64,000 nt of DNA, taken from contig JBEKDT010000003.1 of assembly GCA_050014195.1 (NCBI GenBank), positions 64,001 through 128,000 of the forward strand, in the 5' to 3' direction. Origin of the DNA: Desulfomonilia bacterium. GTDB lineage: Bacteria > Desulfobacterota > Desulfomonilia > UBA1062. Of this stretch, positions 12,780 to 26,639 are shown one piece after another. Under the pieces are notes generated by a model. The model had not been told where the DNA came from. It was given only the letters and a program-made list of their open reading frames with translations, and did no database searches. Position 1 is the stretch's first letter, and each line of letters opens with the position of its first letter. Made by a program: the position numbers and the translations under genes.

Positions 12780-13595
12780 CTATTCCGGCTCAGGGAACTG
12801 CGGTTTCTGCTTTGACAGGAAGGCGGCGATGCCGTGGATGCATTCACCACCCGCAATAAGGGCTACCGCCTCTTCGGTCTCCAGCTCTAGGGCCTTCATG
12901 GTGGTCAAGTCAGCGGTGCTTCTGATCACCTTCAAGGCGTGACGAACGGCGTGCGGGCCGTTTTCGGCTATTGTCCGCGCCAGGACCACGGCCTCCTCCA
13001 GGGCATTGCCGGGTGCGCTGATGCGGTTCACCAGCCCCAGGGCAAGGGCCTCTGGTGCACCTACCTTGCGCGCGGTAAGGATGAGGTCTGCGGCCTTGGA
13101 TGAGCCCACGAGTCGGGTGAGCCCCACAACACCCCCCTGGTCCGGCATGAGACCGAGCCTCACCTCGGAAAAGCAGATGACCGCCCCCGGGTCCATGACC
13201 CGCATGTCGCAGCGGGACGCGATCTCAGCCCCGCCGCCGTAAGCAAGGCCGTTCACGGCTGCAATGACGGGCACTGGCAGCATGACCAGGCTGTCGCTCG
13301 TGGTCCTGACACGCCGGATGAGGTCCATGGCCGGGCCGCTCTCGTGTTTCTCCACGGCATTGATGAGGCGGGCCACCTGGGGGTTTTCGGGGTTCACGTC
13401 AAACCCGGCGCAGAAGGCCTTGTCTCCGGACCCGGTCAGAACGATCACCCGGGGCAGCCTGGCCCTGAGGTCGGCCACCACCTGTTCCATGCAATCCCAC
13501 ATATGCTCGTCCAGAGAATTCTGTTTGTGTGACCGGTCAAAGGTTACAATCGCCACGTGGTCGTGCCGCTCCAAGCGGATACCATAATCTGCCAC
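12780..13595 (-). CDS. enoyl-CoA hydratase/isomerase
   Basis: AFCAGFD, PVIAAVNGLAYGGGAE, EVRLGLMP. Confidence 0.92.
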   Translation of the reverse strand: MADYGIRLERHDHVAIVTFDRSHKQNSLDEHMWDCMEQVVADLRARLPRVIVLTGSGDKAFCAGFDVNPENPQVARLINAVEKHESGPAMDLIRRVRTTSDSLVMLPVPVIAAVNGLAYGGGAEIASRCDMRVMDPGAVICFSEVRLGLMPDQGGVVGLTRLVGSSKAADLILTARKVGAPEALALGLVNRISAPGNALEEAVVLARTIAENGPHAVRHALKVIRSTADLTTMKALELETEEAVALIAGGECIHGIAAFLSKQKPQFPEPE

Positions 13596-13638: not shown

Positions 13639-14196
13639 TTATTTGAATGCCTTCCCGAAGGTGTCGAGATGGACGAAGGCGCTCAATTCCTTGCGGGGCG
13701 GACCCTGCTTGAGTTCCGCCAAAGGCTTGCCCACCGGGAGTACGGCTACAACTTCATAGCCATCCGGCAGGCCGATGACCTTCTTGCAGGCATCATGGTC
13801 CATCAGGCCCACCACCACGGTGCCCAGCCCCAGCTCGTGGGCTGTCAGGCAGAGGTTCTGGACCGCGATACCGAGGTCGAACATGAACCAGGTGGAGAAT
13901 TTGGTAACTTCCTTGCCGCCATAGCAGCCGGACACGCCGGTTTTTGCACAGGCCACAATAAGCACGGATGCACCAAGCGAGCATTTGGTGCCCGGGTTCT
14001 TGTCCGCATAGGTGCCGGCCACCTTCTCGATTATTCCCCTGTCGCGCACCACCACGAACTCCCATACCTGGGTATTGGCCCAGGATTGTGCCAGCCTGGC
14101 GGCCTCGAGAAGTTGCCTGATCTCCCCGTCGGTGACAATATAGTCGGTGAATTTCCTCACGCTCCTCCTGTGCAGGATGGCATCGGTCAGCTCCAT
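13639..14196 (-). CDS. nitroreductase family protein
   Basis: MELTDAILHRRSVRKF, AARLAQSWANTQVWEF, NLCLTAHELGLGT; GAGGAGG RBS. The true start lies inside the longer listed ORF. Confidence 0.9.
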   Translation of the reverse strand: MELTDAILHRRSVRKFTDYIVTDGEIRQLLEAARLAQSWANTQVWEFVVVRDRGIIEKVAGTYADKNPGTKCSLGASVLIVACAKTGVSGCYGGKEVTKFSTWFMFDLGIAVQNLCLTAHELGLGTVVVGLMDHDACKKVIGLPDGYEVVAVLPVGKPLAELKQGPPRKELSAFVHLDTFGKAFK

Positions 14197-14333
14197 GGCT
14201 CCCTCCTCTTTGGCTGATGTTGGAATAAAATCATAGGACATGATCATACACGAGGCATGCCATGTTGTCATTGGTTTCATAGTGAAGGCGTTCCCAGGGA
14301 TGAAGCTTTTTAGAGCCGGGTATGCTCCCCTGC

Positions 14334-14963
14334 TCAACGCCACAGGGAGATTATTGAGATCAGGATCATGAGAATACCCGACCCTGCAACGATTGCGCCC
14401 GAGATGCGGTTCACCCAGGCAAACCCTGATTCGTTCAGCCTGGACCTGAGCATGCCGGCGCCGCCGCTTAAGATGACCCACCACATGGCCGAGCCGATAA
14501 AGACACCGGGCACGAGAAACCAGGCCGCTTCGAGCCCATGGTGGGGGTTTATTATGCCGAACCCTGCAAACAGGATCCCGTAGGAAAAGATCGTCGTAGG
14601 GTTTGCAAGCGTCATGACGAGTGTGGAGGTATACGCGCCCATGAATCCCCTGGCGTGATTGGAGACCGCATGATCCCCCTGTTTTGCAAGGATGATCCTG
14701 ACACCCAGGTAGCAGAGGAACATACCACCGGCGAAGCGTATCCATATCTGATTTTTTATGAGGATATGGGAGACCAGGGTCAGACCCATTCCGGCGATGC
14801 CTCCATAGACTGCATCCGCAGTGGCGGCGCCGAGGCCCGAGATGGTCCCGATTGCCCGGCCCTGGTTCAGCGTGCGCTGGATGCACAGCACATTGACCGG
14901 ACCTATGGGGGCTGCAGCCAGGAAGCCAATGATGACAGCCCCAAAGAAAAGAATAAAATCCAT
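14334..14963 (-). CDS. LysE family translocator
   Basis: AAPIGPVNVLCIQRTL, GLGAATAD, TLANPTTI, GSAMWW. Confidence 0.9.
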   Translation of the reverse strand: MDFILFFGAVIIGFLAAAPIGPVNVLCIQRTLNQGRAIGTISGLGAATADAVYGGIAGMGLTLVSHILIKNQIWIRFAGGMFLCYLGVRIILAKQGDHAVSNHARGFMGAYTSTLVMTLANPTTIFSYGILFAGFGIINPHHGLEAAWFLVPGVFIGSAMWWVILSGGAGMLRSRLNESGFAWVNRISGAIVAGSGILMILISIISLWR

Positions 14964-15272
14964 ATGCCTCCCCTGGGTGTAAAGATATGGGCACTTCAGT
15001 GACAAAAATCAAGGGGAAGGACAAGGTGTCGCACGACAAGATCTGAAATGGAATGTTTATATATTTATGGACGTCCCTGCTGCCTACATAAGTCAGTACA
15101 TTCATCAGGCCAATTTCGTTTACCATGTCCATCCACTGCGATCCGTGCAGGGCGGAACTGCATAGATTTTTATGGTGTCAGGCCTTGATTCATGACATTT
15201 GGGTGCGACAATTATTTAAAAGTCAAAAAAAGACACCTCTATTGTTATAGACGTGCCCATCGAGTCTATGTT

Positions 15273-17792
15273 CTACGCAAAATCTTTTTCCAGGGTGTTA
15301 ATCCTATTTAAAACATCCTGGACAGATTCTTTTAATTCATCACCCATTTTTTTCAACTCATCAGAATATTTTCCACCCATCAGGGAAAGGAGTGCGTAGT
15401 AGACTGGTTTATATTTGTCCCTGATATCGTATTTGTTTTTCTGAAAAATATGGTAGACATAATTGTACTGCCTTTTTGCAATGAACCTAAGAAGAATATT
15501 GCTTATATCCGCATTAACTTCGTGCTGCATCTCCTCAGAATCAAAAACCGATTCAAAAAGCATAATTGCCTCTTGGATTTCATCATTCCAGAGCAGTACT
15601 GTCATGTACCCACGAGCCTCGTTTACACCCCTTTTTATTTCGTATGCTGTTTTTTGAAGATGCAAGGCCTCTTGTTTATTTTTCTTAAGATCAAAATAGA
15701 GGTGAGCAAGATTGTTCATTGCATCGGCATGGCCCTTCTCAACGGCCAACTTGTAATACTTCTCCGCCTTTTCGAAATCATTAAATTCAGTCTTGTAGAG
15801 CAAAGCAAGATTGTACATTGCTCCAGAATCGCCCTTTTCAATGGCCATCTTGTAGTATTGTTCAGCCTTTTCAAAATCCTTAAATTCAGTTGCATGAAAC
15901 ACAGCAAGATTGAACATTGCATAGGGATTCCCATTCTCAACAGCCATTTTGAAGTATTGTTCAGCCTTTTCAAAATCCTTGAGTTCATGCTTATAGAGCA
16001 CTGCAAGATTGTTCATTGCATCGGCATGGCCCTTCTCAATAGCCATCTTGTAGTACTGTTCCGCCTTCTCAGGGTCTTTGAGTTCAGTATGGTAGAGCAA
16101 GGCAAGATTGAACATTGCTTCATCAACACCTCTTGCAACGGCCATCTTGTAGTACTGTTCCGCTTTTGCGAAGTCCTTGAATTCAGTTGCGTAGAGCAGG
16201 GCAAGATTGAATATTGCAGTTGTATCACCTGATTTGATGGCATCTTTATATAAACTAATGGCCTCTTGAAAATCGCCTTCATCTTTAAGCAGCTGTGCCA
16301 GAATCATGATTGCTTTTAATGGTAAAAAACCATCAAGTTTGAGTTTCTTTCGAGCCCCATTGATATCTTTCTTTTTCACGTCCTCGATAACTTCTCTCAG
16401 AACATCAATATGAGACGGGCCAATGTCTTTTACATAGTCGCTTCTTTGGGCAGTGAGGCATTTTTTCGTTTCATCCAGCAGTTCATGTTGAAGATCATAA
16501 GGAATATGGGTTTTGGACAAGGCTTGCGAGACATAAAAGGCATGCTTGTCGTAAAGACGTCCTTCATGCATCGCCTTGATGTGCCTTTTTGTCCTTTCTA
16601 CAAGCTCTTTTTCGCCACAGCAGATTTCAAAAAACTTTACGAGCCAGAGCACACGATTTCTGTTTCGTCTTTTACCGAGGCGCATGAGATAGTAAATATT
16701 GAAAAAACGTTCGTTGATCTGATAGAGATGGTTCTTGGTCGATGTCGGTATCTTTTTTATGAGTTGATTTTTTTCGAGTTGATTGAGCTGGGAAGACACG
16801 GCCTTGCTCGGCATTCTCACCTTGGCTGCGATCTCTTTTGTGCTCACGGCATCCCAGTTTTGAGCTATGGCATCTATGATTGCCTGCTGTTGTGTCGAGA
16901 GATTATCTAACCGGTGTTTGTAAAGCGGGGTCACCCTGTCGAGGATAGCTTCGAGGTCCTTGAAGGAATTGCCGTCTACGTCATCGACAAAAATCTCGAA
17001 AAGCAGCACCACAGTCCTGGGGACTCCGCCCGTCAGGCGCCTCAGGGCATCTATTCTTTCCGGTTGCTCCCTGATGATGGTTTTTATTTCATCTGCCCCG
17101 TAAGTTTCACCAAGTTTGGTGAGAAGCAGAATTGTTTCATCGCGATCAAGCTCGTTGAGGGTGATGACTTTAAAAAAGTCGAAGAAAGGCTCTTTGTACT
17201 CATAGTAGAATTCGAGCAATGCGGATGAAGCACCGATGAATCTCAAATAATTTGAGGTAAGCAATACCTCCCTCAGTCTCTGGTTTTCCTTTCGGGTGAA
17301 TTTCCCCAGCAGGTCGTTGAAATTATCGAGGAGGAGGACAAGCTTTTTCTTCCGCTTCTTCAATTCCCCGATGAGAAGTTTATAGATCTCTTCCTCGGGA
17401 TTCTCGGTATCATAGAGGGCATCAATCTTTCCGGCAACCGGTTCAAAGGTTTCATCGCGATCTGCAAGGATTTGTATTACCTCTTCCCATAATCGCGCCA
17501 AGTTGAGAACACCGTACTGCTCTTCATCGAACATGACCGGTATGAGCCGGTCCAGGAGGTCTTTATCGTTTTCAATCTCGATTTTCAGCCGTAAAAGAAG
17601 GGTTGATTTACCATACCCTCTCTGGCCCTGGATCATGTAGTGCTGCGGGGGTTTAGCCATATTGTCGGTCTTTATTGCATGGAAGAGTTCATCGAATTCT
17701 TTCAACCTTATGACGAAATTAGCAACGATCTCGTCCGGTGGCTGCATAGCCGGATTAAAAAGTGATGGAAGACTTGATTTAGTTTGCGACAT
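15273..17792 (-). CDS. STAND-like P-loop ATPase + winged HTH + SEL1/TPR repeats
   Basis: Walker A GQRGYGKST, Walker B LVLLLDN, LTGGVPR (GxP), wHTH STKEIAAKVRMPSKAVSSQLNQLEK, 33-aa repeats. Confidence 0.85.
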   Translation of the reverse strand: MSQTKSSLPSLFNPAMQPPDEIVANFVIRLKEFDELFHAIKTDNMAKPPQHYMIQGQRGYGKSTLLLRLKIEIENDKDLLDRLIPVMFDEEQYGVLNLARLWEEVIQILADRDETFEPVAGKIDALYDTENPEEEIYKLLIGELKKRKKKLVLLLDNFNDLLGKFTRKENQRLREVLLTSNYLRFIGASSALLEFYYEYKEPFFDFFKVITLNELDRDETILLLTKLGETYGADEIKTIIREQPERIDALRRLTGGVPRTVVLLFEIFVDDVDGNSFKDLEAILDRVTPLYKHRLDNLSTQQQAIIDAIAQNWDAVSTKEIAAKVRMPSKAVSSQLNQLEKNQLIKKIPTSTKNHLYQINERFFNIYYLMRLGKRRNRNRVLWLVKFFEICCGEKELVERTKRHIKAMHEGRLYDKHAFYVSQALSKTHIPYDLQHELLDETKKCLTAQRSDYVKDIGPSHIDVLREVIEDVKKKDINGARKKLKLDGFLPLKAIMILAQLLKDEGDFQEAISLYKDAIKSGDTTAIFNLALLYATEFKDFAKAEQYYKMAVARGVDEAMFNLALLYHTELKDPEKAEQYYKMAIEKGHADAMNNLAVLYKHELKDFEKAEQYFKMAVENGNPYAMFNLAVFHATEFKDFEKAEQYYKMAIEKGDSGAMYNLALLYKTEFNDFEKAEKYYKLAVEKGHADAMNNLAHLYFDLKKNKQEALHLQKTAYEIKRGVNEARGYMTVLLWNDEIQEAIMLFESVFDSEEMQHEVNADISNILLRFIAKRQYNYVYHIFQKNKYDIRDKYKPVYYALLSLMGGKYSDELKKMGDELKESVQDVLNRINTLEKDFA
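15700..16230 (-). repeat. intragenic tandem array of 5-6 x 99-bp (33-aa) SEL1/TPR units
   Basis: Unit AMxNLAxLYxxExKDxEKAEQYYKMAxEKG; gcatcggcatggcccttctcaa recurs at 15721 and 16018 (297 bp = 3 units). Confidence 0.9.
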
Positions 17793-18960
17793 TTGCACAC
17801 CACCATTCGCGCAGTAAGGAGGAATTGAAACGGTATTCCTTCGGGTTATCGCTGTTATTTATGTAACCGTCGTGTTTCAGGGCATTCACTAAATCAGTGT
17901 AGGAATTTTCAAGGCCATATTTCACGGCACAATTGAAGATCTCGCTTGAGGGAATTCTCTTTTTCTCAGAGATTACATTGAGGAGCTCCTTGACAAAGGA
18001 GAATTCATTCGCCTTATATGCCTTTCTCAATCGGGCGAACCAGTGCTCAAAATATATGCGCTGCTTCAGGGCATTCTTTACCGCAGCATCGATATCGCCT
18101 TTGGTGATAACGGTCGAGCCCCGTTCCTCAATGATTTTATATGACTCATCAAGGATGATCTGAAAGTAGTAAGGTATCCACCATTCTGTAATTTCAAGAA
18201 GGTGTTCGAAGGCGTCCTCTTCGAGGGTAATTCCCGATCCATCGAAAATCATGTTTATTAATTTCTTCACTTCCTTTTTCGTCAAAGGCGGAACAGCTAT
18301 GGGGGCCAAATCGGCAACAAGGTTTACATGGTTCATCTTGCTGACAATGTTTTCAAGACCGATTGATCCTGCATAAATGAATTGCAGTTTATTTTGCATT
18401 ACAGGGTCCTGCCTGATTGATCTCTTGGTTTCCAGAAAGTGGATTGCCGCCCGCTCTCCTTCATCCTGCACGATATTTTCAACGGTTGAAGCAAACTCAT
18501 CAATGAGTACGATTATCTTGTCATCATTAAGGACCGCTTTCTGCATGAGCTTGCGCAATTCATCGCAGTAGTCAACAGAATTTCCCGGGTGGAATTTTAT
18601 CCCCTCAGGTCCGACAGACTCGATACATGAAGGAAATTTCTTTGCCAGTGTTTTGACAATCGCCGCATATCTCCTAAGAGTGGTCATTTCCCCCAGGATA
18701 TGGTGAAAGAGTTTCTTGTAGAATTCATTCTCATTGTTGACTGATTCGCTGATGTAGTAGGCGATGAGCAGCTTCTCTTTTGGATTATCAAAAAGATGAA
18801 AGAGGATGGATGATTTACCAACTCTCCGGGGAGCTACCAGCAGGAGGCTGCTGCCACCCTCGAGTTTCCTCCATATCTCGTTGGTAATGTTGGTACGAGG
18901 TAAATATTTCTCGCCCCGTGCTGCCTGCCCGATGACAACATTTAAAGCATTTTTGCTCAT
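17779..18960 (-). CDS. STAND-like/archaeal-type P-loop ATPase with C-terminal helical/wHTH region
   Basis: Walker A APRRVGKSS, Walker B IVLIDEF, YAGSIG, WIPYY; stop overlaps the start of the next gene. Confidence 0.85.
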   Translation of the reverse strand: MSKNALNVVIGQAARGEKYLPRTNITNEIWRKLEGGSSLLLVAPRRVGKSSILFHLFDNPKEKLLIAYYISESVNNENEFYKKLFHHILGEMTTLRRYAAIVKTLAKKFPSCIESVGPEGIKFHPGNSVDYCDELRKLMQKAVLNDDKIIVLIDEFASTVENIVQDEGERAAIHFLETKRSIRQDPVMQNKLQFIYAGSIGLENIVSKMNHVNLVADLAPIAVPPLTKKEVKKLINMIFDGSGITLEEDAFEHLLEITEWWIPYYFQIILDESYKIIEERGSTVITKGDIDAAVKNALKQRIYFEHWFARLRKAYKANEFSFVKELLNVISEKKRIPSSEIFNCAVKYGLENSYTDLVNALKHDGYINNSDNPKEYRFNSSLLREWWCANVAN

Positions 18961-18998
18961 AACCACCCCCCAAAAACTCTCTTCATGTTTCAACTACA

Positions 18999-19045
18999 TG
19001 GCAAAATATATTTTGTCAAGTATTATGACAAAAATTATTTTGTCA
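18999..19045. promoter_or_regulatory. tandem 20-bp palindromic operator-like sites
   Basis: TGGCAAAATATATTTTGTCA (18999-19018) and TGACAAAAATTATTTTGTCA (19026-19045). Confidence 0.6.
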
Positions 19046-19193
19046 TAGTGAGAGAGCCTCGTGGTCCTGTCGTGGACTTAGTGCAGGTGATAGGATAAGC
19101 TGAAGAGGCGAGTAATCTTGGACGCCGGACAGGGAATTCCGTGGACACAATACCTCACTCACTGCTGAAAGACCCTATGTGATATCTTTTCTT

Positions 19194-19730
19194 TTATCCG
19201 GATTCTTCCGGGATAAAGCCTATGCGCGGTTTCCTCTTTGCATGTCCAGGCTTCATCAATTGCTTCATGAGATTCACCATGGAGAGGATCTGTTCGTCGT
19301 GGTCGGCCAGCCTTATTTCCATCTTGTAGATCCTGCTTGAGAGCTCCTTGTGTTCTCCAATGACCCGGCGCAGTTTTACAAAGGCCCGTACGATGAAAAC
19401 GCTCACCTCTACGGCTTTTGCAGAATTGAGCACGCTGGCGGCCATGATGGAACCATGCTCCGTGAATACATACGGGAGGGACTTGGAAAATTTCAGGCCT
19501 TCGAGGTGGCCGCAGCTTGCGACCAGCAGTGCCTTTTCTTCAGGCGTGAGCTGAAACATGAAATCATGGGGGAAGCGTTCTTTGTTTCTCTTCACCTGTT
19601 CGTTCAGGCGCTTTGTGGGCACGCCGTACAACTCGGCCAGGTCCGAGTCTATGATGACCTTTTCGCCGCGTATGAACAGGATGCGCTCCTCGATTATGCC
19701 GACCCTTACTACCTCATTCTCTGGAGACAT
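19194..19730 (-). CDS. ORF6N domain (KilA-N-like) DNA-binding protein
   Basis: IRGEKVIIDSDLAELYGVPTKRLNEQVKRNKERFPHDFMFQL, PYVFTEHG, C-terminal coiled coil ending in RIGF. Confidence 0.92.
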   Translation of the reverse strand: MSPENEVVRVGIIEERILFIRGEKVIIDSDLAELYGVPTKRLNEQVKRNKERFPHDFMFQLTPEEKALLVASCGHLEGLKFSKSLPYVFTEHGSIMAASVLNSAKAVEVSVFIVRAFVKLRRVIGEHKELSSRIYKMEIRLADHDEQILSMVNLMKQLMKPGHAKRKPRIGFIPEESG

Positions 19731-19753
19731 CGTGCCTCACTCCTTAAGGGAGA

Positions 19754-19796
19754 TTTCATAGGGGGTGGTCGCATTTTGCGACCACCCCCTATGAAA
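19754..19796. repeat. perfect 20-bp inverted repeat upstream of the ORF6N gene
   Basis: TTTCATAGGGGGTGGTCGCA-TTT-TGCGACCACCCCCTATGAAA. Confidence 0.85.
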
Positions 19797-19882
19797 AGCA
19801 GACCTTTGTATTATGCTTAAAACTTCCGGCCGATGCCGTACCATTATCAGCAGGATGTCGGGTTTGTCAAAGAGGGGATAAA

Positions 19883-20809
19883 TCAGTTTCTTCGCTCTCC
19901 TCCGCCTCTACCGCCGCCTCCCGGGGGCGGGCTGATCCAACCACCGCCGTGAGGGGTCGGGCTGCCCATTCTGCCGCTTGGCACTCCTTGAGCATGCGGT
20001 GCATTAAAGATCGTCCTTTCACTCCTTGGAATCCCCGTAGGGATAGAATCCATATGCCGGGGCATGCCTATGCCGCCGAATGTTTTCCCCTTAAATCTTG
20101 CCACGGGGTCGATCCTGAAGGCATGATGGGATCCGTGTTCATGGAAATGATTGGTGATGACCACTACCTTGTTATGCCGGTGCATAATCCGATGGAAATC
20201 GTGCAGGATGAAGAATCCGGGGAACCACAGATCCGACCACCAGAACGGGCAAGGAACCCAGGTATACAAATCATAGTAATCCGGCGGAGGACAGTAGTAG
20301 GTGACCACCGGCGGACCTTCCTCTGTATAGCTGTCGTTTACCACCGCAGGGTTCGGGTAATTCGCGCAGCTTGCAGGGTTAGGCTGGTAGTTTGTTCCGG
20401 CAATGAAAGGTCTGAGAGACAAGCCAAGGCCGACCGTAACAGTATTGAACTTCTTCAGGGCATCTTCCTTGCTCATCGAAAGCTTGCCGGCAGCAGCGGC
20501 TTCAGCAAGTGAATTTTGCAGCTCAACGATAATGTCGGGAGTAACCGGATAATCGGCAATCCACCCATTCCGCGGAGCAATGCCGAGCTCTCCCAGAGAG
20601 CTCTCGGCCTCGGCCTCGTCATCGGTATTTACCACGGCCAATGCAGACGCCAGCTCGACTGCGAAGCCGCCTTCATTTATCAACGGCTGGCTCACGGGCG
20701 GAGCGCCCGGGTCTGACTGCTCCGATTGCGCAAGGATCATTACAGGCATCAAGAGCAGAAACAAGCTGATCATACATATTCCCGCATCTCTCGATGGTCG
20801 CATGTGCAT
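19883..20809 (-). CDS. secreted hypothetical protein (paralog 1)
   Basis: Signal peptide; GIAPRNGWIADYPVTPD and GPPVVTYYxPPPDY..WVPCPFWW shared with its neighbour; Gly/Arg-rich tail. Confidence 0.75.
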   Translation of the reverse strand: MHMRPSRDAGICMISLFLLLMPVMILAQSEQSDPGAPPVSQPLINEGGFAVELASALAVVNTDDEAEAESSLGELGIAPRNGWIADYPVTPDIIVELQNSLAEAAAAGKLSMSKEDALKKFNTVTVGLGLSLRPFIAGTNYQPNPASCANYPNPAVVNDSYTEEGPPVVTYYCPPPDYYDLYTWVPCPFWWSDLWFPGFFILHDFHRIMHRHNKVVVITNHFHEHGSHHAFRIDPVARFKGKTFGGIGMPRHMDSIPTGIPRSERTIFNAPHAQGVPSGRMGSPTPHGGGWISPPPGGGGRGGGERRN

Positions 20810-20842
20810 ATCATCCTTCTCCTTATATACGCTCCAACACTT

Positions 20843-21820
20843 TTATCGTTTTTTTATGAACCCCCTGCCGAAAGAACCTCTGCCTCCACCGGAGGGCGAG
20901 CCGGTCGTTCTCTCCCTGGACATCATTCGTGTGCGGGTCCCGTTAAAAATGGTCCTTTCGCTTCTCGGAACCCCCGTAGAGATATAGTTACCTCTATTAC
21001 TATTAGGAGTGCCTCTACCGGTAACGGTTCTTCCATTATGAGAAGCACCTGTACCAGCAACGGTTCTCCCAGTATGAGGAGCACCTATGCCGGCATAGGA
21101 TCTTCCATTGAATCTCGATATGGCATCGACACGAAAAACCCTATGATCTCTTATATCATTGAAATGATTCGTTATGAATACCGCCCTATGATTCACGTAT
21201 TCGATCCTGTGGAAATCATGGAGGATGAAAAATCCGGCAAACCAGAAATCGACCCACCAGAACGGACAGGGGACCCATGAGTACAGGTAATCATAGTCAG
21301 GAGGTGGTGCGTAGTATGTCACTACCGGAGGGCCTTGGTTGGAATAATAGTTGTTTATCACTGTTTGATCGGGTGATTGCCCGGGACCCGATGGGCGGGG
21401 TTGATTGGAGGCATAAGGCCTTATGGATAAATTGAGGTCCGCTACTGTGTCTTGGAATATATGCAGGGCCTCATCTCTTTCGTCGGGTAGCCTTTGGGCA
21501 ATCGCGGCATCACTCACTGATTTTTGTAACTCGGTGATGACGTCGGGGGTAACCGGGTAATCGGCGATCCACCCATTACGCGGTGCGATGCCGACCTCAC
21601 CGAGTCGGCTCTCGGCTTCAACTTCATCCTGGGTTGATCCGAGGCCCAATGCGGTATCCAGCTTGATCGCAAAGTCTCCTTCACGGACCAGCTGCTGTGC
21701 CAACGGAGGCGAGGCCGGTGCTGTCTGATCCAATTGTGCATGAATCATTGCCGGCATCAGAAACAAAAGACACAGACTGACAATACATGATCCCTTATAC
21801 CTGAAAGGCAACCGTTTCAT
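20843..21820 (-). CDS. secreted hypothetical protein (paralog 2)
   Basis: Same motifs as 19883..20809 plus a 12-aa repeat expansion. Confidence 0.75.
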   Translation of the reverse strand: MKRLPFRYKGSCIVSLCLLFLMPAMIHAQLDQTAPASPPLAQQLVREGDFAIKLDTALGLGSTQDEVEAESRLGEVGIAPRNGWIADYPVTPDVITELQKSVSDAAIAQRLPDERDEALHIFQDTVADLNLSIRPYASNQPRPSGPGQSPDQTVINNYYSNQGPPVVTYYAPPPDYDYLYSWVPCPFWWVDFWFAGFFILHDFHRIEYVNHRAVFITNHFNDIRDHRVFRVDAISRFNGRSYAGIGAPHTGRTVAGTGASHNGRTVTGRGTPNSNRGNYISTGVPRSERTIFNGTRTRMMSRERTTGSPSGGGRGSFGRGFIKKR

Positions 21821-21993
21821 TGAACTTCTCCTTTCATCTTTCGCTCTCTCTATATATAGTCTGGGCTCTGAAAATTCCAGTCCCCGTGATCAGGAGAATC
21901 AGGAAATACATTGCCGATTATCTTCATCCGCAATGAATATTCCTGCGATCTCATCTGGGTATAGTCAAAAGATGAAGGGGACCATGGCCTTCC

Positions 21994-22995
21994 CTAGCCG
22001 GCCACCTTGAGCACGATCTTCCCGATGTGCATGCCGCTTTCCATGAGCCGGTGTGCCTCACCGGCTTCAGCCAGCGGAAAGACCTTGTGTATCACCGGGC
22101 CGCAGCGGCCTGCATCCAGAACCGGCCACACCGATTCATGCAGCTCGCTCGCGATCCTCCCCTTCTCGGCAGTGGTGCGCGGCCGCATCATGGAACCGGT
22201 TATGACCAGCCGGTGAGACATCACGTGCATGAGGTCGATCTCGACCATTGATCCCTTCATAACGGAGATCTGCACCAGCCGCCCGTCCATGGCAAGGCAA
22301 CCAAGATTGCGCTGCGTGTTCGGAGCGCCTACGATATCGAGCACCACATCAACGCCCCTGTCTCCAACAAGCCCGCGGAGCGCTTCCGCAAAATCCGTCT
22401 CGCGATAGTTGATGGCAGCGTCTGCGCCGAGTTTCACGCAGGCGTCGCATTTCTCCCTGTTCCCTTCCGTAACAAAGACGCGGCTGCCGAATTCACGCGC
22501 GAGCTGTATGGCCGTGATACCGATGCCGCCCGCCCCCCCGTGCACGAGCACCGACTCACCCCTCGTAAGCCTGCCGATCTGGAACAGGTTCGCCCAGACC
22601 GTGAAGTATGTCTCGGGAAGCGCTGCCGCCCGGATTGCATCATAGCCTTTCGGCCAGGGCAGGCACTGCGGAGAAGGGGCGACACAGTATTCGGCGTAGC
22701 CGCCGCCGTTGGTAAGGGCGCAAACCATTTCGCCCGGTTTCACTGACTTTACCGTCCGGCCCACGGCCGCTACCTGGCCCGCCACATCCAGGCCGATCAC
22801 CGGACTGACACCTTCCGGCAGGGGGTAGACGCCCATGCGCTGCAGAACATCCGGATAATTCACGCCTGCAGCCAGCACCCGGATGAGAACCTCGTCGTCC
22901 CCGGGCTGCGGCACCGGCCCGGTGCCCAGCCGCATGACCTCAGGTCCGCCCGGCTTGAGCGTTTCAATGAAATTCATCCGTTCCGGCATCTTCAT
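21994..22995 (-). CDS. NAD(P)H-quinone oxidoreductase, PIG3 family (MDR)
   Basis: AGVNYPD, ALPETYFTVWANL, VLVHGGAGGIG, HIGKIVL. Confidence 0.92.
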   Translation of the reverse strand: MKMPERMNFIETLKPGGPEVMRLGTGPVPQPGDDEVLIRVLAAGVNYPDVLQRMGVYPLPEGVSPVIGLDVAGQVAAVGRTVKSVKPGEMVCALTNGGGYAEYCVAPSPQCLPWPKGYDAIRAAALPETYFTVWANLFQIGRLTRGESVLVHGGAGGIGITAIQLAREFGSRVFVTEGNREKCDACVKLGADAAINYRETDFAEALRGLVGDRGVDVVLDIVGAPNTQRNLGCLAMDGRLVQISVMKGSMVEIDLMHVMSHRLVITGSMMRPRTTAEKGRIASELHESVWPVLDAGRCGPVIHKVFPLAEAGEAHRLMESGMHIGKIVLKVAG

Positions 22996-23296
22996 GGTTC
23001 ATCCTCCTTCAGACCGGGGATTACCGCTGACGAGAATTTTTTCGCTCATCATGGCCGTTCTCCTTTCCTGGATATTAAGAGATTGGTCTCCCTTTTCAAT
23101 ATGGTCCGGGCAGATTATTATCCAGATATTGACATGGTGATTTAGTGGATTATATTCTAAAGAAGGCTGCAAAAAATTTTACCCATTAAATGCTATAAAA
23201 TGCAATTCGTGTTTTGCTTTGGATTTCAAAGAGAATAATACCAGCACATATTTTTATCGTTGCTTAGCTACCATGACAAATCAGGGAGGGTATATC

Positions 23297-24571
23297 ATGA
23301 AAAAAACCGGAATAAAGTACACATTGGCATTTGTTCTCATTATTGCAGCCCTGTTCGCCAATACAACATATGCATATGATGCAACAGGACGCCAGCTTGC
23401 GCAGAATGCGATAGCATCATTGCAATCCGTTGCAACGACCTCAACGACGAAGAATGTTGCGTGGCTAAACTGGTCATGGTTTGAGGTGAACTTCTATGAT
23501 GGAAAATATCCATATCCAATAACTGTGGATGTTCTCGGCAGCAACCTCGCCAGTGCAAAGAAGGTTATCTACCTGCTCCCGGGTGGAGGCGGCAATTTCA
23601 GTGCAAGTTTCTTTACGCCTATGGACAACAATCTCGCCCAATTCTTTCGCCAGGCCGGATTCCTCGTGATAGGTATAACGCCCAGGGAAGACAATGCACC
23701 ACCAGGAAATTATATGGCAGATTGGGGGATGGCAGCGCACAAAGCTGATATCCAGGAGATCATCGGGATAATCCAGGCGAAGATCAAGCTACCCTACTGG
23801 GTGCTGGGCCACTCCTTCGGCGCAGCATATGCTCTTGATTATTCAAGTACCTGCAGTGATGATCTTTTCAAAAAGGTCATCGCGCTCGATATCTACAGTT
23901 TTGATCCAGCAAAGGTCCCGGACATGGTCACCGATGCAGAGATAACATATGAAGCGTTTGTGGATTTGATCATCAATGAAGGCCAGTATGCAGACACAAC
24001 CTTTTCGGATTTTAAGTCATTGATGTTTATATCCTTGCTTTTCCCAAAATCAGATTCCGGTGAGTTACGGCCGATCGGTGGCGACTTTACGTATGAGGGG
24101 CTGCTCTACTTTTCAATGATCGACAGCTATCTGCTCCCGGGGATTCATACACCGCTTACCGGTCTGGCGAATGACTGGCCTTTGGTTCAGAGTTATGTAG
24201 CAGGGAAATACATATTTGCGGCTAATCCATTGGCTGATATGTACAGGTTGACTCATTCAGATATATGCACATTGAGGACTGCTATTTTCAAGCTTGGGAG
24301 CGGCTTGACTCCATGCGCCGTGTACCGCGATTATTTCGCAGTGAATGCCTATAATGGCGCCTATACAATCAATTGGTCAGGGATTCGTGTCCCGGTCTTA
24401 TGGGTGAATTCGCGGCTCGGGTATGGTGGGAATACCTATGGTGCAACCCTGATTAAGAACTCTGGAAACACGAATGTCAAGGTACCACAGAGTATTCCCG
24501 GATACGGACATTTAGATCTTCTCTTCAGCAACACTGCCCAAGGAGATGTCTGGAACTTGTTCCTGAAATAG
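23297..24571 (+). CDS. secreted alpha/beta hydrolase
   Basis: Signal peptide after GGAGG; nucleophile elbow GHSFG; C-terminal GYGHLD. Confidence 0.75.
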   Translation: MKKTGIKYTLAFVLIIAALFANTTYAYDATGRQLAQNAIASLQSVATTSTTKNVAWLNWSWFEVNFYDGKYPYPITVDVLGSNLASAKKVIYLLPGGGGNFSASFFTPMDNNLAQFFRQAGFLVIGITPREDNAPPGNYMADWGMAAHKADIQEIIGIIQAKIKLPYWVLGHSFGAAYALDYSSTCSDDLFKKVIALDIYSFDPAKVPDMVTDAEITYEAFVDLIINEGQYADTTFSDFKSLMFISLLFPKSDSGELRPIGGDFTYEGLLYFSMIDSYLLPGIHTPLTGLANDWPLVQSYVAGKYIFAANPLADMYRLTHSDICTLRTAIFKLGSGLTPCAVYRDYFAVNAYNGAYTINWSGIRVPVLWVNSRLGYGGNTYGATLIKNSGNTNVKVPQSIPGYGHLDLLFSNTAQGDVWNLFLK

Positions 24572-24596
24572 GTGAATTCAGATCCAGGCATTAAAT

Positions 24597-24634
24597 AAAA
24601 AGATTGAGGGAGGGCCTTCGCCCTCCCTCAATCT
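24597..24634. terminator. intrinsic terminator between convergent genes
   Basis: 15-bp perfect stem AGATTGAGGGAGGGC/GCCCTCCCTCAATCT, with an A-run on the left (U-tail on the minus strand). Confidence 0.85.
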
Positions 24635-24655: not shown

Positions 24656-26371
24656 CTACTCGTTCATTGCGTACTCGCCGTTCAAAACAGACACATACTT
24701 CTCCCAGACCTTGTTGTACTGCTCGGGGTTCGATACGCCCTTGATGAGCATGATCTTTGTGCAGTATTCGCGCTGAGCGTCCTTGGAGTTGTGGTTGCCG
24801 TAGATCTGCAGGGCGAAATGGGCAAAGTCGCGCACCATGAAGTCGAAGATCTGGTTGATGATGTCCGGGTCCACCTTGTCGAACTTGGCCTGCTCTAAGA
24901 TGAGCTGGCCGTAGACCACGATGGAGAACATCTCGCCCACGGGCAGGGACCACGAGGGAGCCATGTCCTGGGCCTTGTCCGGGCCGGCCTTTTCCAGCAT
25001 CTCCTTGAAGATCTCGATCTGCTTGATGAAGGTGGCCACGTTCGGCAGGCCCTTGTTGGCCTCGAACACGGGCTTGTAGTCGTGGAACTGGACCGAGCCC
25101 AGGCCCTTGGTGGGGCCCTGGTTGAACAGGAACGAGTCGTCCTTCAGCGAGAAGTCGGGTGCCGCAGGGGCGTACTCGGCCGGGGTGAAGAAATAGTTCT
25201 TCATGAACTTTCTGATGAGCTGCACGTTCACGTGCACCGTGCCCTCGAGCTTGGACGGGCCGCGCACGTCGGCGGCGGCCATGTGGAAGTAGGTGTCCTT
25301 CTCGAAGCCCTTGGCGGCTATCACATCCCAGAGCAGGTTGATGACGTCTTCGGACTGCAGGGTCACCTTCATCTTGCTCGTGGGGTTGTAGAGCAGGTAG
25401 CGCCTGTCACTGGCGCTCGCACCCCTGAAGTAGTCGGTGGAGCGGCGCTGGTACATCTTCATGGCCACGAGCCGCAGCCAGGCGTCCATGAAGTTCTTGC
25501 GCACGTGGGGCATGTCGGTTACCTTCATGCCGTAGAGGATGCGGTTCGATGCGTGTGTGATGGCCTCGTAGAAGCAGTGCTCGGCAACGCCGATGGATGC
25601 CGGGCCGATGTTGAACTTGCCGATGTTTACGGTATTGAGCGCCGAGTCCCACGCATGGGGGCCCCGGGAGAGGATGTCGTCTTCGGTGATTGGGTAGTCG
25701 TGGAGCGCGAAGTTGGAAACGTACTCCTGGTGGCTGATGACGTTCTTCTTGAGCTCATAGGCCTTGTGGCGGTAGTTGGTGGAGAAGAAGGTGTAGTCGT
25801 CGGTGCCGTCCTTGACCTTGCCCAGGGTGGAGACCATCTCGGCCTCGTTGCCGTTGCCGATGTAGTACTTCTCGCCGTTGGCGACAAACGTGCCGTCACC
25901 CTTGGGGGTGAGAGTCGTCTCGGTGGAGTAGATGTCTGCGCCGTGGGTGCGCTCGGAAAGCCCGAAGGCGAAGATGGCGCCTCCCTTGAGCAGCTGTGCG
26001 GCCCTCTTCTTGGCCTTCTCGTTGGGGCTCATCCAGATGGGGCCCAGGCCCAATATGGTCACCTGGAAGCAGTACCAGTATCCCAGCCCGTAGAAGGCCA
26101 GCAGCTCGGAATACTCGCTGTTGCGCGCCGTGTCCCAGCGGGCATCCGGATCGTCCTCGGCATACTGTTTGGGGGTAAGCAGCTTGAAGAATATCCGTTC
26201 CCGTGCGAGAAAATCGATGAACTCCCGGTACCAGATCTTCTTGTTGTAGTCGTCGAGCAGCCTCTGCTTGCCCATGTTCTCGAAGAAGACAATAGTCTTG
26301 TCCATGATGGCCTTTGACCCTTCATCGGCCATAAGGCTCTTATACTTCTTGGGCTGGATCAGATAATTCAT
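24656..26371 (-). CDS. acyl-CoA dehydrogenase
   Basis: AFGLSERTHGAD, ANGEKYYIGN, KLEGTVHVN; start moved to MNYLIQ after AGGAGA. Confidence 0.9.
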   Translation of the reverse strand: MNYLIQPKKYKSLMADEGSKAIMDKTIVFFENMGKQRLLDDYNKKIWYREFIDFLARERIFFKLLTPKQYAEDDPDARWDTARNSEYSELLAFYGLGYWYCFQVTILGLGPIWMSPNEKAKKRAAQLLKGGAIFAFGLSERTHGADIYSTETTLTPKGDGTFVANGEKYYIGNGNEAEMVSTLGKVKDGTDDYTFFSTNYRHKAYELKKNVISHQEYVSNFALHDYPITEDDILSRGPHAWDSALNTVNIGKFNIGPASIGVAEHCFYEAITHASNRILYGMKVTDMPHVRKNFMDAWLRLVAMKMYQRRSTDYFRGASASDRRYLLYNPTSKMKVTLQSEDVINLLWDVIAAKGFEKDTYFHMAAADVRGPSKLEGTVHVNVQLIRKFMKNYFFTPAEYAPAAPDFSLKDDSFLFNQGPTKGLGSVQFHDYKPVFEANKGLPNVATFIKQIEIFKEMLEKAGPDKAQDMAPSWSLPVGEMFSIVVYGQLILEQAKFDKVDPDIINQIFDFMVRDFAHFALQIYGNHNSKDAQREYCTKIMLIKGVSNPEQYNKVWEKYVSVLNGEYAMNE

Positions 26372-26639
26372 ACGTATATGTCTCTCCTTTCCTGATTTTT
26401 CTCCTGAGTTTTTAAACGCGGTGCTCCCGAGCAGAACTTTTATCGGAGACAATTGCGTCTTCTTTTCATACACGAACACATGCAAAAAGAAAATCCCTTT
26501 CGTGAAATGGGCATTAACCATACTTTTACCGTCGGGTCTTATGGTCCGTCATTCCACTATGACCTTGATGTCTTCGGAAAAAAAAGGTACTCCTGAAAAA
26601 AGGCATCCGGTACGGTTTCCCAAACCGCAGGGGTTAGGT

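Follow-up and report, generated by a model that had tools for sequence, protein, structure and literature searches.

The DNA analysed here is a 64,000-nt stretch from a Desulfomonilia bacterium (contig JBEKDT010000003.1; this whole stretch is referred to as the window), in which two overlapping minus-strand genes, A and B, and the operators upstream of them make up what we call the A/B cassette. The cassette is real, widespread and uncharacterised, and represents a self-operated STAND module of two components without an effector. Of the new facts about it, the most solid is a phased, co-evolving array of predicted operators at its own promoter, which is absent from the initial annotation of this DNA. 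That annotation, made from the sequence alone, had described a coupled pair of STAND-like ATPases and proposed that they are a candidate conflict system resembling the nucleotide-binding leucine-rich repeat receptors (NLRs). Because of the operator array, the reading of the pair as a STAND transcription switch becomes a serious rival to that proposal. The main elements of the cassette are:

17779..18960, minus strand: gene A, predicted MNS-type STAND ATPase (ATG at 18960, stop codon at 17781-17779, 393 aa)
15273..17792, minus strand: gene B, predicted STAND NTPase with winged helix, arm, Sel1 array and helical cap (ATG at 17792, 839 aa)
17779..17792, minus strand: 14-nt overlap of the A stop and the B start, with the stop of A located within the first codons of B (read from the sequence)
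19026..19045, no strand assigned: distal operator palindrome TGACAAAAATTATTTTGTCA with no mismatch, its start lying 85 nt upstream of the start codon of A
18999..19018, no strand assigned: proximal operator palindrome with a single mismatch, its start lying 58 nt upstream of the start codon of A, at 27 nt from the distal palindrome
19014..19019, minus strand: -35-like hexamer TTGACA, formed by the left arm of the proximal palindrome (read from the sequence)

The open reading frames that hold the two genes extend over 17779..18993 (A) and 15273..17798 (B). Two genes sharing 14 nt, both with a Walker A and a Walker B motif, had been reported in the initial annotation, and this description is confirmed, coordinates included. 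The overlap is predicted to couple the translation of the two genes and thereby to fix the proportion in which A and B are made.

The predicted operators are 20-bp palindromes of the form TGACAAAA-N4-TTTTGTCA, spaced by 27 bp and placed over the promoter of the cassette itself. We collected related loci by a pattern scan of 185,579 species genomes, which yielded 338 loci; all locus counts given below refer to the best 80 of these. The consensus of the operator upstream of A in the related loci is TGACAAaAAATaTTTTGTCA, and sites were scored in the 160 nt upstream of A, with up to 2 mismatches to TGACAA-N8-TTGTCA allowed. All 79 evaluable loci possess at least one such site and 73 of the 79 possess at least two (one, two, three and four sites were found in 6, 55, 17 and 1 loci, respectively), and the spacing is exactly 27 nt in 85 of 92 successive sites. 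Upstream of A there are 13.5 sites per kb, compared to 0.18 per kb over the remaining 1.06 Mb of these loci. The 4.2-Mb source genome contains the operator at one mismatch or fewer only at the two cassette sites; with 2 mismatches there are two further operator-like sites compared to 3 for the reversed control, and a regulon search of this genome revealed no further operator beyond the two at the promoter of the cassette, where binding is predicted. The arrangement relative to the promoter is also recurrent, with a -10-like hexamer located 16-18 nt after the TTGACA arm in 48 of 80 upstream regions (79 loci and the window) compared to 34 of 311 control TTGACA sites.

Two plasmid-borne copies extend these observations. 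The copy on plasmid pCM008-C of Clostridium tagluense is preceded by the same palindromes. The copy on plasmid pNP7-2 of Moraxella osloensis is divergent, its A protein being 30% identical and its B protein being recognised with an hhalign probability of 100, and it is preceded by three copies of another 18-bp palindrome, of the type AACTATA-N4-TATAGTT, again with 27-nt spacing (locus L114, 6916-6987). These data point to one conclusion, namely that the DNA binder is probably encoded in the cassette and that the cassette would repress its own promoter, because the sites move with the cassette across phyla and occur nowhere else in the genome, and because they change when the proteins diverge while keeping the 27-nt register.

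One locus, L044, deserves separate mention. A candidate site at 13250 in this locus was rejected as an operator, as it is not a palindrome. At 15574-15620 the same locus contains an orphan second block of two palindromes with 27-nt spacing, in which about 50 nt are nearly identical to the block that precedes A. The orphan block lies 2.4 kb downstream of B, after a gene for a PF09820+PDDEXK_9 ATPase-nuclease and with no cassette behind it; it could represent either a remnant or a control region that was duplicated.

The pairing of the two genes is equally persistent. The N-terminal module of B lies directly downstream of A in 75 of the 80 loci, and the other 5 stop within 22 nt of a contig end, which gives 75 of 75 loci with room for B. 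Of the 75 related loci in which B is visible, 74 have A and B either overlapping or no more than 30 nt apart, the exception being locus L024, where gene A is frameshifted. The identities of A and B to the window proteins are correlated with r = 0.92 (67 loci), and both plasmid copies retain the overlapping A/B layout. When the 824 open reading frames of the 80 loci were clustered, only A (74 loci) and B (75 loci) recurred, with the next family present in 6 loci. Those families that are found repeatedly in the 10 kb around the pair are of generic kinds (ABC ATPase, ECF sigma, AMP-binding, Band 7), with no integrase or transposase among them. By these comparisons A and B are an obligate, co-evolving pair. 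BLASTP detects no similarity between A and B and they are therefore not recent paralogues.

We also predicted the complex of A with residues 1-480 of B, using custom alignments, for which the calibration counts are only rough. The scores of the A:B runs were 0.44, 0.44 and 0.54 (median 0.44), compared to 0.00 for the best of 3 controls. The mark applied is reached by 58 of 80 solved complexes and by 2 of 110 mismatched pairs, and scores of 0.60 or less at that mark were obtained for only 7 of the 80 solved complexes, along with both passing mismatches. The A:B runs share at least 80% of their contacts, with a partner pLDDT of at least 82. A and B may form a hetero-complex, for which the genetic data give a strong prior and the modelling provides weak support. 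The coupled pair of the initial annotation is borne out by the genomic comparisons; the hetero-oligomer that it derived from the pair is upheld in its pairing and weakly supported by the modelled heteromer.

The cassette is common, with 338 species-level genomes in the pattern scan. The best 80 loci alone represent more than 12 phyla, and the groups include Bacteroidota, Ignavibacteriota, Desulfobacterota, Cloacimonadota, KSB1, Calditrichota, Spirochaetota, Fibrobacteria, Omnitrophota, Sericytochromatia, Campylobacterota, Actinomycetota, Fusobacteria, Nitrospinota and others. In 90% clusters, A has 512 and B has 1,201 matches, and a profile of the N-terminal 480 residues of B matches 2,743 representatives of 50%-identity clusters at E <= 1e-30. 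Within the genus, A is present in 1 of 14 other genomes and is frameshifted there. The cassette is accessory, patchy and horizontally mobile. In the sister genome that carries this second copy (G003, loci L024/L108), gene A is distributed over two reading frames, which cover aa 1-221 and aa 202-393, and B has 740 aa; the cassette is decaying there.

The domains and motifs of the two proteins are located as follows:

18808..18834, minus strand: A Walker A motif APRRVGKSS, aa 43-51 (G48 and K49 invariant in 22 sequences)
18493..18513, minus strand: A canonical Walker B motif IVLIDEF, aa 150-156 (D154 and E155 invariant in 22 sequences)
17782..18012, minus strand: A C-terminal winged helix and terminal helix, aa 317-393 (secondary structure of the model)
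17148..17717, minus strand: B nucleotide-binding domain, aa 26-215 (alignments of homologues)
17604-17627, minus strand: B Walker A motif GQRGYGKS, aa 56-63 (GKS/T in homologues, 26-sequence alignment)
17313-17339, minus strand: B Walker B motif VLLLDNFND, aa 152-160 (D156 and N157 invariant in 26 sequences)
17013..17030, minus strand: B GxP motif GGVPRT, aa 255-260 (R259 and T260 invariant, G256 and P258 at least 90% conserved in 26 sequences)
16680..16901, minus strand: B winged-helix domain, aa 298-371 (weak profile matches, model and conservation)
15633..16322, minus strand: B TPR/Sel1 array, aa 491-720, containing six Sel1 units of 33 aa each (Pfam and tandem DNA repeats)
15276..15632, minus strand: B C-terminal helical TPR-like cap, aa 722-839 (motifs KYKPVYYAL and KMGxELK)

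The A protein consists of a nucleotide-binding domain, a helical domain, a C-terminal winged helix and a conserved tail YRFNS..LLREWW (alignment of 22 homologues). It has W-I-P at aa 261-263, in the position of the GxP motif, and its winged helix spans aa 317-378; the C-terminal elements of the structure model (pLDDT 86) are helices at 317-333, 338-347 and 354-364, a strand at 375-378 and a helix at 381-392. The best fold match in the PDB is SSO1545 (2fna; E 1e-11, TMq 0.61, TMt 0.67) over the full length, and PAB2304 (2qen) is matched similarly, also over the full length (E 8.8e-11, TMq 0.62, TMt 0.69). Poorer matches include Cdc6/ORC proteins (TMq ~0.45), NRC3 (0.58), CED-4 (0.54), Avs3 (0.51) and MalT. 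Because of the full-length matches to 2fna and 2qen, we regard A as a predicted minimal MNS-type STAND module, composed of nucleotide-binding domain, helical domain and winged helix. At the sequence level the likeness is faint. The Pfam scores lie below their cut-offs (ATPase_2, PF01637, 19.9 of 33.2; nSTAND1, 16.2 of 27.1), a sequence and profile search of the PDB returned only 2qen at E 0.14, and TIGR02928 is matched weakly (E 0.0029, 16.5 bits compared to a cut-off of 181.3). A search for fused forms of A, which is weak evidence, returned a single long protein and no A-B fusion. The long protein (P0243, 786 aa) has an A-like module at aa 14-314 followed at aa 388-672 by an AAA_15/AAA_21/SMC_N-type ATPase, a kind common in defence ATPases.

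In the B protein, the nucleotide-binding oligomerisation domain (NOD) is followed by the repeat array and the cap. All features that the initial annotation had assigned to the second gene, namely a GxP motif, a winged helix-turn-helix (wHTH), SEL1/TPR repeats and a helical tail, were recovered. The winged helix contains the third helix SKAVSSQLNQLEKNQLI and the conserved motif ERFFNI(W/Y)YLMR; in Pfam, aa 298-350 have weak matches only (MarR, E 0.002; HTH_24, E 0.0021), NCBIfam and PADLOC wHTH models likewise match weakly, and the model shows the order helix-helix-helix-strand-strand at aa 300-359. Apart from these weak ArsR/MarR-like profile matches, the third helix SKAVSSQLNQLEKNQLI presumably resembles an ArsR recognition helix. 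The structure model of B (pLDDT 87) retrieves by Foldseek various Sel1/TPR proteins, PH0952 (6mfv; E 9.1e-10 over 773 columns), Avs3 (8dgc), 2qen and Cdc6/Orc1. Differences between the two chains in conformation and in the number of repeats keep the TM-scores of B and 6mfv low (0.23/0.28). A PDB sequence search with B returned Sel1/TPR proteins only.

The P-loop and STAND families of Pfam score below cut-off for B as well (AAA_16, 28.5 of 32.6; nSTAND5, 26.8 of 34; NACHT, 19.9 of 26.7), with nSTAND5 as the best STAND-family match, although some homologues of A and B carry PF25199, PF01637 or PF05729 in precomputed domain lists. Since all P-loop/STAND Pfam scores fall below the curated cut-offs, the term "STAND-like" used in the initial annotation rests on motifs and fold searches: it is backed by the Walker and GxP motifs, the winged helix and the fold matches, and not by any STAND Pfam family above its cut-off. 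By predicted fold, A and B are both classified here as STAND-type NTPases.

The Sel1 array of B is recognised by Pfam with 72.7 bits compared to a cut-off of 30.7, and several TPR families likewise score above their cut-offs. The 33-aa units are visible in the DNA as 99-nt tandem repeats at 15696-16218. We aligned 263 repeats of 33 aa from 62 B proteins and found that the entropy is 2.3-3.2 bits at repeat positions 2, 3, 4, 7, 11, 14, 15 and 21 and at most ~2.2 bits elsewhere, with little variation at most of the remaining positions; these variable positions fit the pattern expected if they form one exposed face of the first helix of the repeat. The number of units varies too. Of 120 B homologues, 61 differ in length from 839 aa by a multiple of 33, to within 2 aa, compared to 18 expected, and the B protein of the sister genome, which is 88% identical, has 740 aa and is exactly three units shorter, suggesting that the number of Sel1 repeats changes quickly. 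The contigs from 4 DNA runs over 15200-19200 are identical where they cover this region and broken inside the repeats, and no repeat-number polymorphism is visible in them. The B proteins of the Moraxella and Clostridium plasmids have different, shorter C-terminal regions with no Sel1 matches. A and the NOD of B are the constant part of the cassette and the C-terminus of B its variable part. For the tail of B (aa 722-839), a structural search of the Atlas yielded only TPR/PPR-like neighbours (feature scores up to 0.84) and no enzyme-like match.

The initial annotation had noted that no effector is recognisable, and this is confirmed. Pfam, PADLOC and NCBIfam detect no nuclease, TIR, SIR2 or protease family in A or B, and there is no membrane-like segment, the maximal Kyte-Doolittle hydropathy over 19 aa being 1.09 for A and 1.43 for B. 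An N-terminal effector fusion was not found among homologues either, as the NTPase module begins within the first 40 residues in all of the 150 best B representatives.

We tentatively interpret the block as a self-contained, mobile, autoregulated, effector-less STAND sensor/partner pair with a conflict-type role, and give this interpretation somewhat less than an even chance. A conflict or defence-type sensor is the most likely role, as a plausible rather than a demonstrated one. In such a pair, B would be the sensor, with its NOD and arm followed by the Sel1 array whose hypervariable helix face presumably binds a protein or peptide ligand, and A would be its obligate partner, made in fixed proportion through translational coupling. 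At rest, a winged helix of the cassette would be bound as dimers to the two to four 20-bp palindromes located 27 bp apart, and the ArsR-like winged helix of B is favoured over that of A as the operator reader. The bound palindromes would cover the -35 and -10 elements of the cassette promoter and keep expression low. Ligand caught by the Sel1 face would open the NOD of B and lead to nucleotide exchange, and the opened B would assemble with A into a hetero-oligomer, similar to a sensor/helper NLR pair. Assembly would remove the proteins from the operators and result in a feed-forward rise in expression. Because neither protein has an enzyme domain, the output would be the oligomer itself, acting through clustered DNA-binding domains, sequestration of the bound target, or ATP turnover. 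It is possible to go further and propose an immune switch in which a foreign protein on the Sel1 face drives the ATP-dependent assembly of A and B off their operators, the response amplifies itself, and the invader is neutralised by sequestration or by the DNA assembly, all without an enzyme domain. We consider this extended version unlikely; if true, it would represent a mode of STAND/NLR signalling undescribed in bacteria.

Several observations weigh against the interpretation of the pair as a conflict-type sensor. No defence model of PADLOC, NCBIfam or PHROG matches A or B: the best scores for A are those of PDC-S01 (E 0.0055) and DS41_1 (E 0.0042, 16.1 bits compared to a cut-off of 370), and in PADLOC-DB v2 and NCBIfam B is matched by wHTH models only. 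Metabolic and housekeeping genes make up most of the immediate flanks. By Pfam, as a raw count, the mobile or defence-like genes number about 9 among 112 neighbours (EcoEI_R_C, MazF, HigB, two PF09820+PDDEXK_9, IS110, Cas6, MqsA and ORF6N). PADLOC at E <= 1e-12 also marks 9 of the 112; only three of these belong clearly to defence (the ORF6N/PDC-S05 gene of the sister island, HigB and Cas6) and the remainder are generic matches (UvrA, SMC, methyltransferase, ArsR). A counter-example is the Moraxella pNP7-2 copy, which is located beside QatD, a protein kinase, insertion sequence (IS) elements, a dUTPase and an N6 methylase. No copy of the cassette was found in 50,697 phage records, and just 7 of 72,556 plasmid records match it. 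The defence reading of the initial annotation thus received no help from the PADLOC search, the neighbourhood survey or the phage records, and the label "NLR-like conflict system" is plausible, without support from context.

Further points of the same kind come from the proteins themselves. The Walker B motif of B is D-N-x-x-D and not D-D/E; we take it to recall the extended motif of NACHT proteins. The score of the predicted A:B complex is a weak pass. The two operator subclasses, with AA or T[AG] at half-site positions 7-8, do not cleanly sort the recognition helices of A or of B, and in the Moraxella variant the recognition helices of both proteins differ. Neither the window proteins nor the N-termini of the 150 best B representatives contain an effector domain, and the output step is therefore pure inference. 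Finally, transcription factors such as PH0952 and MalT are built in the same way, as STAND-TPR proteins that include a DNA-binding domain, according to the available text of PMC6468293.

This last point introduces the first and main one of three alternatives, in which A and B are a pair of signal-responsive STAND transcription regulators of the MalT/PH0952/AfsR kind, with a Sel1 array that senses a cellular metabolite or protein and with a regulatory role in place of conflict. The whole-chain fold match of B is to PH0952 (6mfv), the third helix of its winged helix has weak ArsR/MarR-like matches, sequence-specific operators are present, and the neighbours are housekeeping genes instead of defence islands. 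A 2026 census, in the text available, also distinguishes 589 prokaryotic STAND clades, 198 of them defence-associated and interspersed with non-defence clades (Lee et al. 2026, bioRxiv 10.64898/2026.01.04.697583). However, the only operators in the 4.2-Mb genome are those before the cassette itself, and no neighbouring gene is conserved; the cassette therefore has no visible target other than itself. Pfam detects no DNA-binding effector domain (LuxR-type, ArsR-like or SARP) outside the NOD, only the winged helices in the NOD position. The patchy horizontal distribution, with a decaying copy in the sister genome, and an operator that changes with the cassette are a better fit to a self-contained mobile unit than to a host regulator. 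On balance a regulator pair appears to us improbable, and yet it has to be taken seriously.

A small autonomous operon with overlapping genes and palindromic self-operators over its promoter, inserted singly between unrelated housekeeping genes in many phyla and occasionally accompanied by toxin-antitoxin (TA) genes (MazF, HigB, MqsA), could also be a selfish, addiction-type cassette. One of the ATPases would be harmful alone, autorepression and coupling would fix the ratio, and loss would be penalised, so that the module would persist whether or not it helps against invaders. Against this, searches of Pfam, PADLOC and NCBIfam revealed no known family of toxins or antitoxins, proteins of 393 and 839 aa are far above the size of a typical TA pair, and a hypervariable repeat face has no role in a plain addiction module. 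The sister genome, where A is frameshifted and B persists, speaks against strict addiction, at least with B as the toxin, and we consider addiction to be quite improbable. Least probable of all, and by our estimate very unlikely, is an ORC/Cdc6-like initiator or partition-type pair, for which the 27-bp-phased palindromes would be the iteron- or origin-like sites of a small integrated replicon. Both A and B do fold-match archaeal Cdc6/Orc1 and eukaryotic ORC subunits, including the DNA-bound heterodimer 2qby, the sites are repeated in an AT-rich gap beside the genes, and TIGR02928 has its weak match (E 0.0029). But the ORC/Cdc6 TMq of ~0.45 is poorer than the 0.61-0.62 of the MNS-type proteins, and the operator sites overlap the -35 and -10 elements. 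The copies occur in chromosomes as lone insertions flanked by housekeeping genes, without an integrase, Rep or Par gene that recurs beside them; plasmids seldom carry them, and none is present in the phage collection searched.

The setting of the cassette in the window is itself unusual. The GC content of the cassette is 0.427 compared to 0.529 for the window, the lowest of all 3.77-kb segments in the 64 kb (mean 0.526, standard deviation 0.032). The region ~14300-24600 is an insertion of ~10 kb common only to one sister genome, as deduced from two genomes of the genus in which the nitroreductase gene abuts the homologue of the window gene 24656-26521. The low-GC cassette is nested in this insertion, the remainder of which has 51.8% GC. 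The AT-rich island of the initial annotation is therefore real as to its composition and smaller in its extent, being the 3.8-kb cassette inside an insertion of ordinary GC. The insertion contains the A/B cassette, an ORF6N gene, two unknown paralogous genes, a Zn-dependent dehydrogenase and an alpha/beta-hydrolase-like gene. The ORF6N gene (19194-19730, E 8.9e-30), which the initial annotation had listed as a neighbour, does adjoin the cassette here; together with the two unknown genes beside it, it accompanies the pair in only 1 of the 80 loci, which is the sister island.

Some features of the surrounding genes are recorded here as side observations. The ORF6N protein resembles phage anti-repressors (phrog_4792, E 2.1e-22) and its homologue in the sister genome matches the PADLOC candidate PDC-S05 (E 1.3e-29); just upstream of the gene, at 19754-19796, there is a perfect 20-nt inverted repeat with a 3-nt loop. 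The two unknown genes, 19883-20809 and 20843-21820 on the minus strand, are adjacent paralogues of 308 and 325 aa with a 272-nt stretch that is 70% identical at a distance of 1008 nt, and neither has a Pfam or PHROG match. The second of them contains three 36-nt tandem repeats at 21001-21109. On the other side, the open reading frame 13639-15132 (minus strand) abuts the cassette and encodes a 497-aa "nitroreductase" with an N-terminal extension of ~280 aa that has no Pfam match. The nitroreductase match starts at residue 245-312 in 10 of 11 matching genomes of the genus, and at residue 31 in G003.

STAND and NLR proteins are central to innate immunity in every domain of life, and the well-studied bacterial STAND proteins kill through a fused enzyme. 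In the A/B cassette the switch is divided between two ATPases, an effector is lacking, and co-evolving operators are arranged in a fixed 27-bp register. The cassette thereby raises the questions of how STAND proteins signal without an effector, whether the winged helix of a NOD is able to read DNA, and how small autonomous cassettes keep their regulation as they move between phyla. Homologues are available from culturable sources, Clostridium tagluense (pCM008-C) and Moraxella osloensis (pNP7-2). We found no description of the cassette or its operator in the literature searched, which extended to the 2026 census exclusive of its supplementary tables, and no text on nSTAND5 in the same literature.

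Among known proteins, SSO1545 (2fna) and PAB2304 (2qen), of family PF01637, have the same plan as A, with a P-loop domain, a helical domain and a C-terminal winged helix, although the sequence likeness is marginal (PF01637, 19.9 bits compared to 33.2; 2qen, E 0.14). We know of no assigned function or obligate partner for either of them. The closest counterpart of B is PH0952 of Pyrococcus horikoshii (6mfv), with the same order of nucleotide-binding domain, helical domain, winged helix, arm and helical-repeat sensor, and a link to DNA binding is predicted for both. The available text of PMC6468293 describes PH0952 as a STAND-TPR protein and predicted transcription factor, a single polypeptide with a separate N-terminal ArsR-like effector domain. 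The cassette differs in having no separate effector domain, an obligatory second ATPase gene, and a Sel1 array as the sensor.

The Avs/AVAST and bNACHT systems share with the cassette a STAND core with a C-terminal helical-repeat sensor and a patchy horizontal spread, and Avs3 (8dgc) is among the fold matches; for Avs5, the available part of PMC12931631 describes TPR/Sel1 motifs as the sensor, next to a Sir2 effector. An Avs system consists of one protein that bears an effector such as a nuclease or Sir2 at its N-terminus, whereas the cassette has two genes, no effector and a private operator, matches no PADLOC model and lacks a defence-island context. Similar in organisation are two-gene STAND operons known from computational prediction, namely nSTAND2 and the MNS "Npun2340/2341" family (PMC8195603, available text). 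According to the same text these are, like the cassette, mobile two-gene operons in which both products are STAND modules and a hetero-multimer is proposed. One nSTAND2 partner combines eroded NTP-binding motifs with a GT4 or HEPN effector (PMC8195603, available text); in the cassette, by contrast, the Walker A motif of each protein is intact, and neither a GT4 nor a HEPN domain is present.

Two further classes of systems resemble the cassette in logic while having no sequence relation to it. In sensor/helper NLR pairs, such as NAIP-NLRC4 and the paired NLRs of plants, a receptor-like STAND protein likewise works with a partner STAND protein; helper NLRs carry signalling domains, and gene A is without them. 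In the C-protein/C-box of restriction-modification systems and the operators of type II TA systems, as predicted here for the A/B cassette, a mobile unit represses itself through palindromes that travel with it.

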